From an uncultured Nitrososphaerales archaeon (GTDB taxonomy: Archaea; Thermoproteota; Nitrososphaeria; Nitrososphaerales; Nitrososphaeraceae): a stretch of 64,000 bases of DNA. The translations under genes were made by a program, and so were the position numbers. This document shows positions 1 through 5,530 of this stretch, piece after piece (the first letter of the stretch is position 1; every line of letters starts with the position of its first letter). The notes below the pieces were generated by a model. It worked only from the letters and a program-made list of their open reading frames with translations. It was not told where the DNA came from and made no database searches. The stretch spans positions 128,001-192,000 of the forward strand of contig CAVPXM010000063.1 in the NCBI GenBank assembly GCA_963709405.1. The letters are read 5' to 3'.

Positions 1-89
1 AAAATATATTTTTTCTGCTTTGCAACACATGCCCTTGAACAATACTACATATTTATATCATATGATATCGTAGGTATTCAAGATAGCTG

Positions 90-491
90 ATGGAAGATTT
101 TGAGAAGGACTTCCCTGATTTCGATTGGAAAAACATACCGGCTTATAGACACCCGAAGGGGAAAGATTGTCCTTGTCCAAAACACGAGTTCATTCGAGAG
201 CAAATTAATATATCAAAGAATTTGAATAATAGTAGCAGTAGTATGCAAGATTATTCAAAACACTCTCGTAAAGCACAAATTACTTTGAAATTATGCCCGG
301 ATCATTACAATGTATATTTCAAGGAGGTTATCCCCTCCATGCCGCTGAAGTACAAGCTCATGACAAAAGTTGCGATAAAACTTGGAGCAGTCGTGATCCA
401 ACAGATCTCATACATGTTGTCAGATCAATGCTTTTACTGTAGATTTGGATCTGGCGGTTTTGATAGAAAAACAGAACTCCCCCCCATCTAG
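90..491 (+). CDS. Hypothetical Cys/His-rich, probably metal-binding protein
   Basis: 133-aa ORF with CPCPKH, LCPDH and CFYC motifs; TATA-like TTTATATC at 52-59. Confidence 0.7.
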   Translation: MEDFEKDFPDFDWKNIPAYRHPKGKDCPCPKHEFIREQINISKNLNNSSSSMQDYSKHSRKAQITLKLCPDHYNVYFKEVIPSMPLKYKLMTKVAIKLGAVVIQQISYMLSDQCFYCRFGSGGFDRKTELPPI

Positions 492-523
492 GCTTAATAA
501 TATCATTCACATTTCCTTAGTAA

Positions 524-1213
524 TTACTGGAGCATATTTTTTACCATAAGTATACGATCAGATGCCAAGCCTAGTGAAAGGAGGTTTCGCAAAATCATCC
601 AGATATATGGAATGGATTCTTTGGATTCCCCGGAATATCCTTTAAAAAAAGACTTTTGAATCCTCAAATATGTGTGCTGCTCCAGGTCGATTACGCTTGC
701 AAGGAAAGTTGCAATGTCCATACACCTTGAGAATGTAGAAGCATTTTTTTGAGTAAGTCCCAGATCCGTTCTAATAATTGAATCCGTACAACTTATCAAG
801 TAATTTTGAGATTTATTGTCGACAAATGTATATCCAGAATTATGCAATCTCCCTGTCAACACACCTACGTCATAGCTTAATTCAATACTCTTACCATGCG
901 AAAATGCTCTATACAAATTTCCTCCAGGTACATATTCTTCAATGATCATCTCATCAGATATCGATAATAAAGCCGGCGTTGGGACTCCCAACTTTCTTAG
1001 AACTATCCTCATCGCAAAGCCTTCATTTCTACGAGATCGTTCGCCTAATACTGGAGGAGGAGATGGATGCATCAGAAGAATGGAAATCAAACCATATGCC
1101 ACGACCAGAAGGTACTCATGAAAGCATTTACTCTGCTTATTTCTTTTTACAGTGACCTTCTTGCCGTTGATAGTTTCAATCGAGATATCTCTCTGCCAAT
1201 TAACAAAATGCAA
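524..1213 (-). CDS. Atypical protein-kinase-like protein (Bud32/Kdo-WaaP/RIO-like)
   Basis: VTVKR, LRKLGVPTP, IIEEYVPG, LH..G...VDNKSQNYL and RTDLGL match kinase-like subdomains. Confidence 0.7.
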   Translation of the reverse strand: MHFVNWQRDISIETINGKKVTVKRNKQSKCFHEYLLVVAYGLISILLMHPSPPPVLGERSRRNEGFAMRIVLRKLGVPTPALLSISDEMIIEEYVPGGNLYRAFSHGKSIELSYDVGVLTGRLHNSGYTFVDNKSQNYLISCTDSIIRTDLGLTQKNASTFSRCMDIATFLASVIDLEQHTYLRIQKSFFKGYSGESKESIPYIWMILRNLLSLGLASDRILMVKNMLQ

Positions 1214-1287
1214 GGTCTTATCGAATATACGGGCGATTATTAGGTATATACATTGATAATAGATAACTATCGATATTAAATAATTAC

Positions 1288-1968
1288 ATGCCTCTCCATA
1301 AAGGAAATTTAAGCGCTCAACGATTTTTCACGGCTAAAAATGCCAATAGTTACGATAAGCTAGTCTATGCAGCCACATTTGGCCAAGACAAGGTGTGGAA
1401 AAAGCAAATAGCGAATGTGGTAAAAGAATGTAATATTATCCTTGATTTAGGGTGTGGAACGGGCATCCTCTCAGCTATGTTACAACAAAATAATAATTTT
1501 GGGATTGTGTACGGCTTGGATTTGACATTTGAATATTTGAAAGTAGCCTTGGCCAAGAGAATGAATATACCTCTGTTAAATGCAACTGCAGAGGCTCTAC
1601 CTTTCAAGAATGAAGCATTTGATTCAGTCGTTGCATCGTACATACCAAAATATACACAAATTGACCAATTGATAGACGAGTGTCTGCGCGTCCTTAAAAA
1701 GAAAGGAATCCTAATTCTACATGATTTTACCTATCCGCTTTCCAAAGTAATGCGAGTAATCTGGAAATTTTATTTTGCTCTTTTAAGACAAATCTCCGAT
1801 CTTGTACGATCCTGGAAGGATGTTTTTATGGAATTGGATCGCCTCATTGAAACAAGTACGTGGGTAATCGAATGCATGAATATACTGAGTGTAAAAGGCG
1901 TCGATTCTGTAGAATGTATGCATTACACTCTTGGGACGGCTGCAATAATAGTAGCTCACAAGATATGA
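1288..1968 (+). CDS. UbiE/MenG-like class I SAM-dependent methyltransferase
   Basis: YD...TFGQD..WK, ILDLGCGTG, AEALPF...FD, RVLKKKG motifs. Confidence 0.85.
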   Translation: MPLHKGNLSAQRFFTAKNANSYDKLVYAATFGQDKVWKKQIANVVKECNIILDLGCGTGILSAMLQQNNNFGIVYGLDLTFEYLKVALAKRMNIPLLNATAEALPFKNEAFDSVVASYIPKYTQIDQLIDECLRVLKKKGILILHDFTYPLSKVMRVIWKFYFALLRQISDLVRSWKDVFMELDRLIETSTWVIECMNILSVKGVDSVECMHYTLGTAAIIVAHKI

Positions 1969-2702
1969 GTGCTGATAATTCACGACTTAACGAATGGTTT
2001 GTGCCAAAATTTGGTCCTTTAAAATTCCGTGCTTTGATAGGGCTCTTGTTTTTACCGTATACCGCAATGTGTGTGTGCTTCACAATACTTGGAGGATTGT
2101 TATCTCCGGTGATTCATGGAGACAGATTATTTGCAATTGCATTGATTTATTTCCTGGCATTAGGATTATCTGCTCATGCTGCAGATAGCATTGGATCTAA
2201 AAAGGTTAAACCATGGGCGAATTATCTTAGTAAGCGCGAACTGACAGTATTATTAATATCAGGAATAATTCCCGCATATTTGATAGGGCTATATTATATT
2301 ATTAATTATGTACCGCTTCTTTCTTTTATTGCCATTATTGAAGGGTTTTTCCTGTTTGCCTATAATTTTGAGTTATTTGGAGGATTGTTTCACGGCAATT
2401 TTTGGTTTTCTGTGTCATGGGGTGCCCTACCACTTCTTGCCGGATTCGTCATGCAGACCAATTCAATTACTATCTTGTCGATTCTGATATCATTTCTTAC
2501 TGGTCTAGTCAGCTATATAGAAATCAGACTTTCACGTGAATACAAAGTACTGAAAAGAACCAATACTCATATCGCCGAACAAAGAATGTTGGAACTCCGC
2601 TTAAAGGCCATTAGTTTAGGAACAGTAGCAATCACTATTACATTTTTCTCTATTGACTATTTTCGTTATGGACTTGAAATCCTTTCAATGGGGGTATTTT
2701 GA
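1965..2702 (+). CDS. Multi-pass membrane protein, UbiA prenyltransferase-like (degenerate Asp motif)
   Basis: ATG at 1965 forms an ATGA overlap with the methyltransferase stop; about 7-8 hydrophobic helices; LPYT, AHAADS....KPW, FAYN, WGALP segments positioned as in UbiA-family proteins. Confidence 0.6.
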   Translation: MSADNSRLNEWFVPKFGPLKFRALIGLLFLPYTAMCVCFTILGGLLSPVIHGDRLFAIALIYFLALGLSAHAADSIGSKKVKPWANYLSKRELTVLLISGIIPAYLIGLYYIINYVPLLSFIAIIEGFFLFAYNFELFGGLFHGNFWFSVSWGALPLLAGFVMQTNSITILSILISFLTGLVSYIEIRLSREYKVLKRTNTHIAEQRMLELRLKAISLGTVAITITFFSIDYFRYGLEILSMGVF

Positions 2703-2744
2703 AATGATTCAGCTCTTCCATTTTCACTTAATGAGGCAATATGC

Positions 2745-3281
2745 ATGATCCAGATATGTATTGAGGTAGGAAAGTACGGGAGTTTAATTGAAAGTATTCG
2801 TACTCTAGAAAATAAAATGGGTAAGAAAATATCCGTATTTTCAAAAATTTTGCTTTCTGATACAGGCATACTTGAGGACAAACTAGATATCATTCTGAAT
2901 TCTGTAACATCGATACATGTTATCGAACAGCGCGAAGTGAACGTACTAATACTAAGGCGTATCCACTTGGTTGACGAAAAGACAAAAAAAAGACTAGTTT
3001 ATGCAAGCTCACGCATCCATATTGACTGCTTGCCGCTGAGTATAATTAATCAGATTCGAGAGAAACATGATGGGTTAGGAAAGATTCTTATGAATTCCCA
3101 ATTAGAGATCCATAAAAAAATCCTAACCCTTGGGTACGACTGCGTTAAGCATAGATTGTTTAGAAGTTATGATATTTATAGTCAAAAGCGTATTATAATC
3201 GAGACTGAAGAGGTTATGCTAATCAGTGATGAGGATCTAGAAAGTACGGTGATAAGAAATAATGGACCGGGTGGGATTTGA
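2745..3281 (+). CDS. Chorismate pyruvate-lyase (UbiC/DUF98)-like protein
   Basis: ILLSDTG.LE..L, RRIHL......LVYASS, GLGKIL...LEIHKKI, RSYDI.......ETEE pattern; start uncertain (frame open from 2703). Confidence 0.65.
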   Translation: MIQICIEVGKYGSLIESIRTLENKMGKKISVFSKILLSDTGILEDKLDIILNSVTSIHVIEQREVNVLILRRIHLVDEKTKKRLVYASSRIHIDCLPLSIINQIREKHDGLGKILMNSQLEIHKKILTLGYDCVKHRLFRSYDIYSQKRIIIETEEVMLISDEDLESTVIRNNGPGGI

Positions 3282-3336
3282 ACCCACGGCCTCAGCAATG
3301 CCAATGCCGTATCCTACCAGACTAGACGACCGGCCC
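3263..3336 (-). tRNA. tRNA-Ala(GGC), intronless
   Basis: Reverse complement GGGCCGGTCGTCTAGTCTGGTAGGATACGGCATTGGCATTGCTGAGGCCGTGGGTTCAAATCCCACCCGGTCCA folds as a cloverleaf; anticodon GGC; G3:U70 pair. Confidence 0.95.
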
Positions 3337-3431
3337 GCAATATCCATATGCTCAGATTTGGATATTAATACTTTTTACAATAAGTAACAATATTATAATC
3401 ATATCTACACTTCAAGGACCATTGGTATAGG

Positions 3432-3857
3432 GTGTCTCCAGAACAGTCTATAGGTGCAATTGTAACATATCGGCCTTCTCGAGAAGATACGGAGTCTCCA
3501 GAATTCCTGCTTCTCAAGAATAGGAGAGGATATTGGGGCTTTCCCCAAGGGCATAAGGAGAAGGGTGAAACGGAGATACAAACGCTGGTAAGAGAAGTCA
3601 CCGAAGAAACAGGTATAACATCATTGGACATCCAATCCTATATAGGTAAGATTCGGTACACATTTTTCAAATCCGATGGCATGAAATCTGAAAAGGAGGT
3701 TACTTTTTACTCCGCCACGAGTTCCACGCAGTATGTCAGAATTTCAGTTGAGCATGAAAGCTACAGATGGGTTTCATATTCAGATGCACTTTGGATGCTC
3801 GATCACAGGCAGTTACGGTCAATACTATTGAAAGGACATAGAAAGGGCTTATATTGA
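3432..3857 (+). CDS. Nudix hydrolase (Ap4A hydrolase-like)
   Basis: WGFPQGHKEKGETEIQTLVREVTEETG Nudix box; SVEHESYRW. Confidence 0.9.
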   Translation: MSPEQSIGAIVTYRPSREDTESPEFLLLKNRRGYWGFPQGHKEKGETEIQTLVREVTEETGITSLDIQSYIGKIRYTFFKSDGMKSEKEVTFYSATSSTQYVRISVEHESYRWVSYSDALWMLDHRQLRSILLKGHRKGLY

Positions 3858-3955
3858 CCTGCAGACAATTGTATACCACTTTCCCTACTTGCAACCTTAT
3901 CGTAATAGATTTATAGCAAACAATAAACGAATATCCGTGGGGTACTGATTATAAA

Positions 3956-5530
3956 ATGGCAGTTGGTAAGAGGATAGTTTTGACGGCAGATAGAAGCTTA
4001 ATGACAAATTATCGGGGAAATTTTCTTTACGGATTCATCGCTTGTGGACCTTACGAGTTAGTACCTGAATTTGTTTTTGACAAGTTGTTTTGTCCTAGTG
4101 TGGAGACCGACAAAACTACTGGAGAGGTAAAAGTAGCGCAGTGTGGATTGAGGAGGGTAGAGGGGGCATTGTTGAAGGAATACCAACGCGACGATATATT
4201 CATAGCCCATCCGGAGATGTTAGCTAAATCTGTAGGTCCAAACACTAAAGTCCTAGGAATAAATGTGATGGATCCGCTCGGTATGGCACCTGTGACGACA
4301 ACTATGTCTCCTGAAAAGCTTTCCTATGTCGCCATGAAATTTAAGAAGATGTGTGCTTCGATTATCCAGCTCAAGAAAAAATATGACTTTAAAGTAGTCG
4401 TTGGCGGAAATGGAGCATGGGAATTGGCACGACCAGATCGTATGAAGATCCACGGCATAGACACTGTCGTTATTGGGGAGGCAGATGAACTAGCCTTAGA
4501 CCTTTTCCGTGATTTGGAAAATGGCGACGCTCCTGAGCTTTTACACACCTTCGTGAGGAACATTGAAAATATCCCAATGATAACTGGACCAACCATAAAT
4601 TCACTTGTCGAGGCAATGCGAGGATGCGGCAGAGGGTGTGATTTCTGCGATGTCAATAAGAGATCAAAGAAAGACATCCCTCTTGAGAGACTACAATATG
4701 AAGCAAAGATAAATCTTGCTTACGGTTTTGACTCTATCTGGCTTCAATCTGATGAGATGTTATTGTATGGATGTGACAATAAGGACTTCATACCAAATGC
4801 TGACGCAATATTGAACTTGTGGAATGGTCTTAAGTCTGTAGGTGCGAATTTTGTAGGGACTACTCACATGACGTTATCTGCTGTAGCTTCATCTCCCGAT
4901 CTAATCAGGAAGATTTCAGAAGTTAACAACATGCAGCATAACGGAAGATGGCTGGCTACCAATTTGGGAGTTGAAACAGTCGCTCCAAGAATGGTAAAGC
5001 GTCATCTCGGAGTAAAAACCAAACCCTACCAACCAGAAGAATGGGGCACGGTTGTAAGAGAGGGAACAAAGATCCTTAACGACAACCATTGGTTCCCAGC
5101 TTTGACCCTAATTATTGGGTGGCCAGACGAAACCCCAGATGAAACCCAATACACTATCGATCTTATAGAGGACTTTCGTAAAATGAATATGAGAGGGTTG
5201 CTTGCTCCTCTGCTCTATCAGGATTTCTCAGAGAGAAACTCCATGCACTTTGGAAATCTGAACGAAGCTCAATTCACTCTTTTCTGGAAATGCTGGCAAC
5301 ATAACCTGTGGGTTATCAACGACATAATCCCTATTATTATTAGAAACAAGACGTATGGTCCTATGATGAAGATATTTATGGCGGCGTTGATCAAGGCAGG
5401 AACATGGGCCATAATGAGATACCTGAGGGGATTGTCTAAGAGCCTTTTCCATGGACAGTATCCAGAAGATATAGTGAGCAGATACGCTAGGAAGAGATCG
5501 GTTACCACTCCTGTTTTTCGTAAACCCTAG
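3956..5530 (+). CDS. B12-binding-domain radical SAM protein
   Basis: RGCGRGCDFC cluster motif; N-terminal VVVGGNG and DTVVIGEAD Rossmann-like cobalamin-binding region. Confidence 0.85.
   Translation: MAVGKRIVLTADRSLMTNYRGNFLYGFIACGPYELVPEFVFDKLFCPSVETDKTTGEVKVAQCGLRRVEGALLKEYQRDDIFIAHPEMLAKSVGPNTKVLGINVMDPLGMAPVTTTMSPEKLSYVAMKFKKMCASIIQLKKKYDFKVVVGGNGAWELARPDRMKIHGIDTVVIGEADELALDLFRDLENGDAPELLHTFVRNIENIPMITGPTINSLVEAMRGCGRGCDFCDVNKRSKKDIPLERLQYEAKINLAYGFDSIWLQSDEMLLYGCDNKDFIPNADAILNLWNGLKSVGANFVGTTHMTLSAVASSPDLIRKISEVNNMQHNGRWLATNLGVETVAPRMVKRHLGVKTKPYQPEEWGTVVREGTKILNDNHWFPALTLIIGWPDETPDETQYTIDLIEDFRKMNMRGLLAPLLYQDFSERNSMHFGNLNEAQFTLFWKCWQHNLWVINDIIPIIIRNKTYGPMMKIFMAALIKAGTWAIMRYLRGLSKSLFHGQYPEDIVSRYARKRSVTTPVFRKP

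Follow-up and report, generated by a model that had tools for sequence, protein, structure and literature searches.

Introduction

In Escherichia coli K-12, the genes of the chorismate-lyase-fold protein UbiC and the UbiA-fold protein UbiA are neighbours, and the ubiquinone set to which they belong includes a methylase of the UbiE/COQ5 type. The cyanobacterial plastoquinone and the Nitrospirota methyl-plastoquinone pathways combine a chorismate lyase of DUF98 type with a transferase of UbiA type and a methylase resembling UbiE, and the late steps of the futalosine pathway likewise employ a pair of UbiA type (the prenyltransferase MqnP) and UbiE type (the methylase MqnG) on a prenylated ring. 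Here, we describe a gene module of related composition from an uncultured archaeon of the Nitrososphaeraceae, a family of soil ammonia oxidisers. It lies in a stretch of 64,000 nucleotides (positions 128,001 to 192,000 of contig CAVPXM010000063.1, assembly GCA_963709405.1), hereafter referred to as the window, and consists of the genes for a UbiE/COQ5-like methyltransferase (MT), an atypical UbiA-fold membrane protein and a DUF98 chorismate-lyase-like protein, the latter two being neighbours as in E. coli.

To our knowledge, menaquinones are the only quinones described for ammonia-oxidising archaea. We consider the chances about even that the MT and the UbiA-fold protein, together with the DUF98 lyase where it is present, constitute an accessory, partly mobile pathway to a prenylated, ring-C-methylated aromatic lipid that is not menaquinone.

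The gene set as such has been named before. Conjugative elements of Ca. Nitrosocaldus cavascurensis are drawn with CHLP, GGPS, UbiC, UbiA, RmlB and UbiE genes (Abby et al. 2018, PMC5797428, Fig. 8A); the part of that paper available to us names these genes and terms them possible fitness cargo, without motif analysis, distribution or function. The literature searched yielded no functional or comparative treatment of the module; supplementary gene lists, which lay outside this search, may bear on it. The module is of the UbiC/UbiA/UbiE type, with an atypical UbiA-fold protein at its core. Unlike the copy on the Nitrosocaldus conjugative elements, the module of the window is chromosomal and situated between conserved genes.

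A UbiA-fold protein without aspartate-rich motifs

The membrane gene (1965–2702, + strand) encodes an integral protein of 245 amino acids and shares its frame with a longer listed open reading frame (ORF) starting at GTG (1860–2702). The protein has no match of its own in Pfam (to E ≤ 0.1) or NCBIfam and was not retrieved by a genome-wide search with the UbiA family PF01040 to E ≤ 10 (the Pfam gathering cut-off of this family being 34.2 bits). Single-sequence and profile searches against PDB sequences gave nothing at E ≤ 10, so that the protein is tied to UbiA solely by comparison of folds. Its AlphaFold (AF2) model (predicted local distance difference test, pLDDT, 84.5) resembles UBIAD1 (8djk_B) with a VIA Z of 15.0 (root-mean-square deviation 4.6, 210 residues aligned), DGGGP synthase (7bpu_A) with Z 14.3 and AfUbiA (4tq4_D) with Z 14.1; the best matches, at Z 15.0 to 13.3, are UBIAD1, DGGGP synthase and archaeal UbiA homologues. 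In a Foldseek-independent search of 48,161 chains, the top 46 matches of the model are all isoprenoid enzymes, headed by the UbiA type (Z 13.9, 13.9, 13.4 and 12.8), and the next fold follows at Z 7.2.

Relatives of the protein number 2517, a few of which have a precomputed UbiA match. Sub-threshold Pfam UbiA matches are found in 13 of 27 aligned relatives, the best one shown reaching 30.7 bits, and hhalign of the family against 30 canonical UbiA proteins from the source and related genomes gives a probability of 63% (E 7e-5). The protein atlas yielded unnamed clusters, together with one auto-named “putative UbiA family prenyltransferase”.

UbiA enzymes are characterised by two Asp-rich motifs, NDxxDxxxD and DxxxD. 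In the profile alignment, the first of these positions reads SAHA---------AD in the membrane protein, a nine-residue gap leaving D74 alone, and KPW is found at the place of the RPL of UbiA proteins. The region of the second motif reads SRxYKxLKR and holds no conserved acidic residue. AHxxD and FH stand in for the Asp-rich motifs, and within the family R54, H71, Y133, H143, S151 and K214 are kept down to 32% identity, D74 nearly so. The loss of both motifs and the score below the Pfam UbiA cut-off set the protein apart from E. coli UbiA, and it would likewise be an atypical transferase in comparison with the plastoquinone and methyl-plastoquinone pathways. An earlier reading of this DNA, made from the sequence only, had called the protein UbiA-like, which the predicted structure confirms, and had cautioned that AHAADS stands where the first motif is expected; this caveat holds more strongly than it was stated, since the second Asp-rich motif is gone as well.

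The methyltransferase and the chorismate-lyase-like protein

The MT gene (1288–1968, + strand; 226 amino acids) and the membrane gene overlap in the sequence ATGA, in which the stop codon of the former (TGA, 1966–1968) is entered by the start codon of the latter (ATG, 1965–1967). The protein belongs to the UbiE/COQ5/MenG family of S-adenosylmethionine (SAM)-dependent methyltransferases, as had been read from the sequence and is borne out by a Pfam match to Ubie_methyltran (PF01209) of 73.7 bits (cut-off 20.1), with residues 18–225 on profile positions 16–233 of 233, and by the full-length alignment of its family profile (19 orthologues) to yeast Coq5 (4obw; E 5.1e-17). Other PDB matches of this profile are confined to the Rossmann core. 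The scores in the UbiE/MenG models of NCBIfam stay below both cut-offs (98.9 bits in NF001244, cut-off 216; 96.2 bits in TIGR01934, cut-off 158.35), and that in the MpqE model of NCBIfam is far below (77.9 bits, cut-off 335). The SAM motif LDLGCGTG is intact, and an N-terminal YD..W(K/R) element is present. A complex prediction for the MT and the membrane protein, run without controls, returned a score of 0.00 and weighs neither way.

The lyase-like ORF (2745–3281, + strand; 178 amino acids) is DUF98/Rv2949c-like. On its own it scores 16.4 bits in PF01947 (cut-off 22), and a genome-wide search with this family retrieved nothing; an exhaustive search yielded 79 relatives, and of 56 aligned ones 49 match PF01947 (best E 7e-13). 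The best structural and profile match is AF1396 of Archaeoglobus fulgidus (PDB 2nwi, DUF98), which the family profile finds at E 3e-18. The AF2 model (pLDDT 95.1) matches 2nwi_F at E 5.7e-9 in Foldseek (template modelling scores 0.67/0.75) and E. coli UbiC (1fw9) at E 9.3e-5. Identity to AF1396 in the structural alignment is 14%, and, unlike AF1396, the protein of the window represents a divergent sub-branch of PF01947.

R71 is invariant and E156 is present in at least 90% of the 56 aligned rows; their counterparts in E. coli UbiC are Arg76 and Glu155, as given by a profile-to-sequence alignment that is weak (E 0.0044). These two residues and two backbone amides are given as the 4-hydroxybenzoate ligands of UbiC in the part of the source available to us (PMC7879144). 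The third ORF had been read as chorismate-lyase-like, and both the fold and the Arg/Glu pair that binds 4-hydroxybenzoate in UbiC agree with this. In comparison with the E. coli ubiquinone set, equivalents of Arg76 and Glu155 are thus kept and a UbiE/COQ5-type methylase is common to both, whereas the lyase is of the DUF98/PF01947 branch and UbiC belongs to PF04345.

The 3′ end of the lyase-like ORF meets a tRNA-Ala(GGC) gene (3263–3336, – strand; ARAGORN, Rfam 59.7 bits), which lies opposite the last 19 bases of the ORF. The tail of the predicted protein (..GPGGI) is antisense tRNA sequence, and model confidence is low there.

Canonical DUF98 genes occur in the order in a different context. 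In three genomes of families f12 and f5 (L085, L086 and L094), such a gene (PF01947, 97–112 bits) is divergently paired with that of an AIR-synthase-related protein of 458 amino acids. The f12 protein scores 55 bits in the NCBIfam model cyano_chori_ly, far below the cut-off of 175. The AIR-synthase-like partner was considered as an explanation of the window and rejected, its gene not being found in the source genome.

Linkage and distribution of the module

A tblastn survey of the 1.5-kb flanks of the membrane gene drew on 41 related genomes and covered 28 distinct loci; two further loci (L033 and L034) are duplicates of L029 and were left out of this count. The MT gene is present in 26 of these flanks, the lyase-like gene in 22 and the gene of a kinase-like protein, which is divergent to the module in the window, in 17. 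This arrangement is not a matter of chance.

In an evenly spread sample of 121 Nitrososphaerales genomes, with families given by our handles (f1 being the soil family), the membrane gene was found in 66 genomes (f1 13/13, f4 9/9, f9 11/11, f7 11/13, f10 9/14, f13 5/14), and the MT gene also in 66, with a near-identical spread over the families (f13 4/14). After removal of paralogue cross-hits (both genes in G029; the MT in G045, G085 and G102, where it fell on the coordinates of the other paralogue), both genes remain in 62 genomes, and in 57 of the 62 they share a contig and are no more than about 4 kb apart, in most cases no more than 1.2 kb; in G040, G042, G044, G063 and G067, each is on a contig of its own. 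G126, one of the positive genomes, is flagged as unpublished, and none of the statements made here hinges on it. The orientation of the pair is co-directional, divergent or convergent depending on the family, and because linkage persists while orientation varies, we argue that the linkage is under selection. Synteny across the Nitrososphaerales, proposed as a check in the sequence-only reading, is therefore seen: the genes are linked in relatives. The lyase-like gene is present in 46 of the 121 genomes and is adjacent in f4, f9, f19 and part of f1 and f13. Among 301 genomes sampled from the phylum, the membrane gene was found outside the order only in f26 (2/24), besides f13 (16/44).

Some families have a longer cluster. 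In f9 (L090, L106), the order is MT, a short-chain dehydrogenase/reductase (SDR; opposite strand), membrane gene, lyase, hotdog thioesterase, polyprenyl synthase and GGR-like flavoprotein; here, the gene set of the Nitrosocaldus elements is found in one stretch, which has HerA-like and topoisomerase IA genes on its flanks. In f4 (L104, L105), the order is GGR-like gene, lyase, membrane gene, SDR and MT, and in f26 (L111, outside the order) polyprenyl synthase, membrane gene and GGR follow one another with close or overlapping gene ends. The GGR of L111 scores 158.1 bits in TIGR02032 (cut-off 158.8). The two best matches of the f9 polyprenyl synthase are an encapsulin-cargo polyprenyl transferase and IdsA, followed in third place, below cut-off, by an archaeal hexaprenyl synthase (99.9 bits). 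The polyprenyl synthase- and GGR-type neighbours in f9, f4 and f26 are the context that would speak for a Mg2+-dependent transfer of prenyl groups from prenyl diphosphates by the membrane protein.

Decayed and additional copies were also encountered. In G004 (L029), both the membrane gene and the MT gene are broken into pieces that lie in different frames; G105 (C1:1196300–1196859) and G125 (C6, C13) carry extra module copies with several stops; and in G077 (C25) a membrane gene with a stop stands beside a lyase remnant of 44 residues.

Separation from the menaquinone genes

The source genome assembly (4.83 Mb in 100 contigs, 91% complete) contains no MenB or MenD above cut-off. Its one PF02621 gene (C30:29150–29926, L043) has as best PDB matches AF1704 and TTHA1568 (“menaquinone biosynthetic enzyme”), both of which we take to be MqnD. 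Outside the window, an MqnL-type UbiD (502 bits, cut-off 495.9), UbiX and a MenA-like transferase are encoded. The futalosine pathway is given for Thaumarchaeota in the part of Zhi et al. 2014 available to us.

The MenA-like transferase is present in 95 and a second UbiE-like MT (C21, L039, in the source genome) in 94 of the 121 genomes, both in 14/14 of f13. In three genomes (G080, G089 and G042), the coordinates of the two genes place them next to two adjacent PF02621 (MqnA/MqnD) genes; in G034, this holds for the MenA-like gene, and the second MT is on another contig. Because they are near-universal and stand beside MqnA/MqnD genes in deep-branching relatives, the MenA-like gene and the second MT are regarded as the core menaquinone set and as the counterpart, in this order, of the late futalosine pair. 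The pair of the window is distributed differently: it is present in f7 (11/13) and f10 (9/14), where PF02621 is found in 0/13 and 0/14, and in only 4–5 of 14 f13 genomes, although f13 has PF02621. The module is distinct from the menaquinone gene set, and the pair does not track PF02621. As the best Ubie_methyltran match of the source genome, the window MT had been considered for the menaquinone methylase, an assignment that its distribution and the synteny of the second paralogue led us to reject.

PF02621 genes themselves vary in number: f1, f4, f9 and f13 have one per genome, one split hit aside, and f3, f11, f19 and G124, which are deep-branching, have two adjacent copies. No recognisable MqnA-like chorismate dehydratase was found with PF02621 in the ammonia-oxidiser families of the order sample. 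The first futalosine step is thus left without a known enzyme in ammonia oxidisers, because their single PF02621 gene is MqnD-like and MqnA is not recognisable. Given the single PF02621 gene of f1, f4, f9 and f13 and the MqnD-like nature of the source copy, the DUF98 protein was considered as a replacement for the missing MqnA; this was rejected as a general answer, with g2 (0/6 for DUF98) and 10/14 f13 genomes having MqnD and no DUF98 gene. A second UbiD-family gene of the source genome (C30:79894–80452, L052) consists of two overlapping ORFs (214 and 288 amino acids) and may be a split gene or contain a frameshift.

A proposed pathway and its alternatives

The above findings establish the folds and family relations, the loss of the motifs, the linkage and the fact that the module stands apart from the menaquinone genes; from these we infer the chemistry. 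The DUF98 enzyme would split chorismate into 4-hydroxybenzoate and pyruvate. The membrane protein would hold a polyprenyl diphosphate in its UbiA-type cavity and join it to the aromatic acid, with H71, D74, Y133 and H143 possibly forming a rebuilt site that substitutes for the two Asp-rich Mg2+ motifs, and with R54 and K214 as candidate phosphate ligands. At the membrane, the co-translated UbiE/COQ5-type MT would then add a methyl group to a ring carbon. For f4 and f9, we envisage that the chain would be supplied by a dedicated polyprenyl synthase and saturated by the GGR-like flavoprotein, and that the SDR and the hotdog thioesterase might contribute further tailoring. A more speculative extension, which we hold only tentatively, is that a new branch of the UbiA superfamily begins with the membrane protein, in which prenyl chemistry is retained with a His/Asp site (AHxxD ... 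FH) instead of the two Asp-rich Mg2+ motifs, and that with the DUF98 lyase and the COQ5-like methylase it yields a second, hitherto unseen, saturated-chain lipid of prenyl-phenol or benzoquinone type in ammonia-oxidising archaea, spreading on conjugative elements and lost in many marine lineages.

Several points weigh against such a pathway. Known substrates of UbiE/COQ5 enzymes are quinols, and the cluster comes without a decarboxylase or ring hydroxylase gene; in comparison with the E. coli ubiquinone set, UbiD/UbiX and hydroxylase genes are missing from it, and the known quinone of the host archaeon is menaquinone. With both UbiA-defining Asp-rich motifs gone, there is no assurance of canonical prenyl transfer, and distant members of the membrane family have not retained N134 and E136. 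The lyase-like gene was not found in g2 (0/6), f7 (0/13) and f10 (0/14), which keep the MT–membrane pair, and in f26 the membrane gene stands without MT and without lyase. Because 4 of 16 membrane-gene copies in f13 have in-frame stops, the function of the module appears to be dispensable there. As far as the available part of the N. maritimus lipidome report goes, two menaquinones are the only quinones listed (PMC8674956). The suggestion, made from the sequence, of an undescribed aromatic lipid or quinone that carries prenyl and methyl groups is therefore upheld in part: the separation from the menaquinone genes, the folds and the linkage fit it, and the lost Asp-rich motifs and the patchy lyase weigh against it.

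The pair could instead be a second late menaquinone set of MqnP/MqnG type, or a menaquinone modifier that, for example, changes the chain or adds a further methyl group. The late futalosine steps do use a UbiA-type and a UbiE-type protein, thaumarchaeal menaquinones have saturated C30 chains, and the f9 cluster contains a polyprenyl synthase with a hexaprenyl synthase as its third-best, below-cut-off match, along with a GGR-like reductase. However, there is a full core set at another location, which is MqnA/MqnD-linked in relatives, 9–10 of 14 f13 genomes have MqnD without the pair, f7 and f10 have the pair without any PF02621, and naphthoquinone synthesis has no role for a chorismate lyase; we therefore judge this reading improbable. 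The loss of both Asp-rich motifs would also suit a dead UbiA-fold pseudoenzyme that anchors the MT and passes on a prenylated substrate made elsewhere, the lyase being a loose neighbour. ATGA coupling, which suggests equal amounts of MT and membrane protein, and the far tighter co-occurrence of these two with each other than of either with the lyase speak for it, but the intrahelical polar residues H71, D74, Y133, H143, S151, K214 and R54, kept to 32% identity, suit a working site better, and the f26 operon unites the membrane gene with polyprenyl synthase and GGR in the absence of an MT, so that a pseudoenzyme, too, seems unlikely. That DGGGP synthases (Z 14.3 and 12.8) rank so high in the structural comparisons raises the question of isoprenoid membrane lipids as substrates, for example an archaeol-type lipid bound by a protein derived from DGGGP synthase and methylated by the MT. 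The f26 trio resembles lipid-synthesis gene sets, the lyase is dispensable in several lineages, and methoxy-archaeol is among the N. maritimus lipids in the part of the lipidome report available to us (PMC8674956). Against this, the MT aligns from end to end with enzymes that methylate ring carbons (Coq5/UbiE), a neighbouring lyase is seen in f1, f4, f9, f19 and part of f13, and the module is patchy in f13; an action on membrane lipids is, in our view, quite unlikely.

A further possibility concerns the divergently transcribed kinase-like ORF (524–1213, – strand; 229 amino acids), which the sequence-only reading had set beside the kinase-like UbiB of bacteria: it might regulate or assist the pathway in the manner of UbiB in ubiquinone synthesis. 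The gene is adjacent and divergent in 17 of the 28 related loci, and its product keeps the catalytic residues: residues 70–195 align to PDB Bud32 8unk_B at E 4.5e-5, including the D..N of the catalytic loop and DxG. Neither ABC1/UbiB (PF03109) nor any other Pfam family was matched at E ≤ 0.1, however, and the score in the Bud32 model TIGR03724 is 55.4 bits (cut-off 125), as compared with 201.6 bits for the true Bud32 (the KEOPS kinase) encoded elsewhere in the source genome, on C65, C66 and C67. The small, atypical kinase is a Bud32 paralogue, not UbiB, and lies outside the module core. In the order sample it was found in f1 only (13/13), with 0/9 in f4 and 0/11 in f9, and it was not found in f10 or f13 either, although the module occurs in these families; in many f1 genomes (G007, G105, G088, G017, G014, G009 and others) a long distance separates it from the module, or the two are on different contigs. 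A UbiB-like role of the kinase is thus highly improbable. The three Bud32 copies (C65:58223, C66:8187 and C67:122) have near-identical scores, which, together with the genome size of 4.83 Mb, suggests assembly redundancy or a mixture of strains.

Neighbouring genes and RNA-library coverage

All four ORFs, the ATGA coupling and the divergent spacer between the kinase and MT genes (1214–1287; 74 bp, A+T-rich) are present in the window as originally read. Upstream of the kinase gene, a Cys-rich ORF of 133 amino acids (90–491, + strand) is found, for which no family match rose above noise; it has the same place in G019 (L093), with 68% identity. Downstream of the module, a Nudix hydrolase gene (3432–3857, + strand; Pfam 58.4 bits) occurs across f1 with 58–96% identity, a link to the module not being evident. 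It is followed by the gene of a B12-binding radical SAM protein (3956–5530, + strand; 524 amino acids) that is TIGR04013-like (52.7 bits). As far as the loci reach, the N-terminal 58–81 residues of this protein are 91–100% identical between genera of the family, one locus covering 26 residues only, and are thereby far more conserved than the neighbours.

Contigs from RNA libraries cover most of positions 1–4000 at 95–99% identity and bridge both the MT/membrane and the membrane/lyase junction. One of them spans the divergent kinase–MT pair, so that carry-over of DNA is possible, and the coverage is therefore not counted as expression. A spike of depth at 3217–3350 in three RNA-library runs is attributed to the tRNA-Ala(GGC) gene.

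Significance

The membrane protein offers a natural experiment on how much deviation from the Asp-rich motifs of catalysis the UbiA fold allows. For the ammonia-oxidising archaea, the presence of the module in all sampled genomes of the soil family (f1, 13/13), where it is separate from the menaquinone genes, points to an unseen redox or antioxidant lipid, possibly a new biomarker. The module thereby predicts a lipid that has gone unseen in a well-studied group of organisms and offers a concrete target for lipid chemists.

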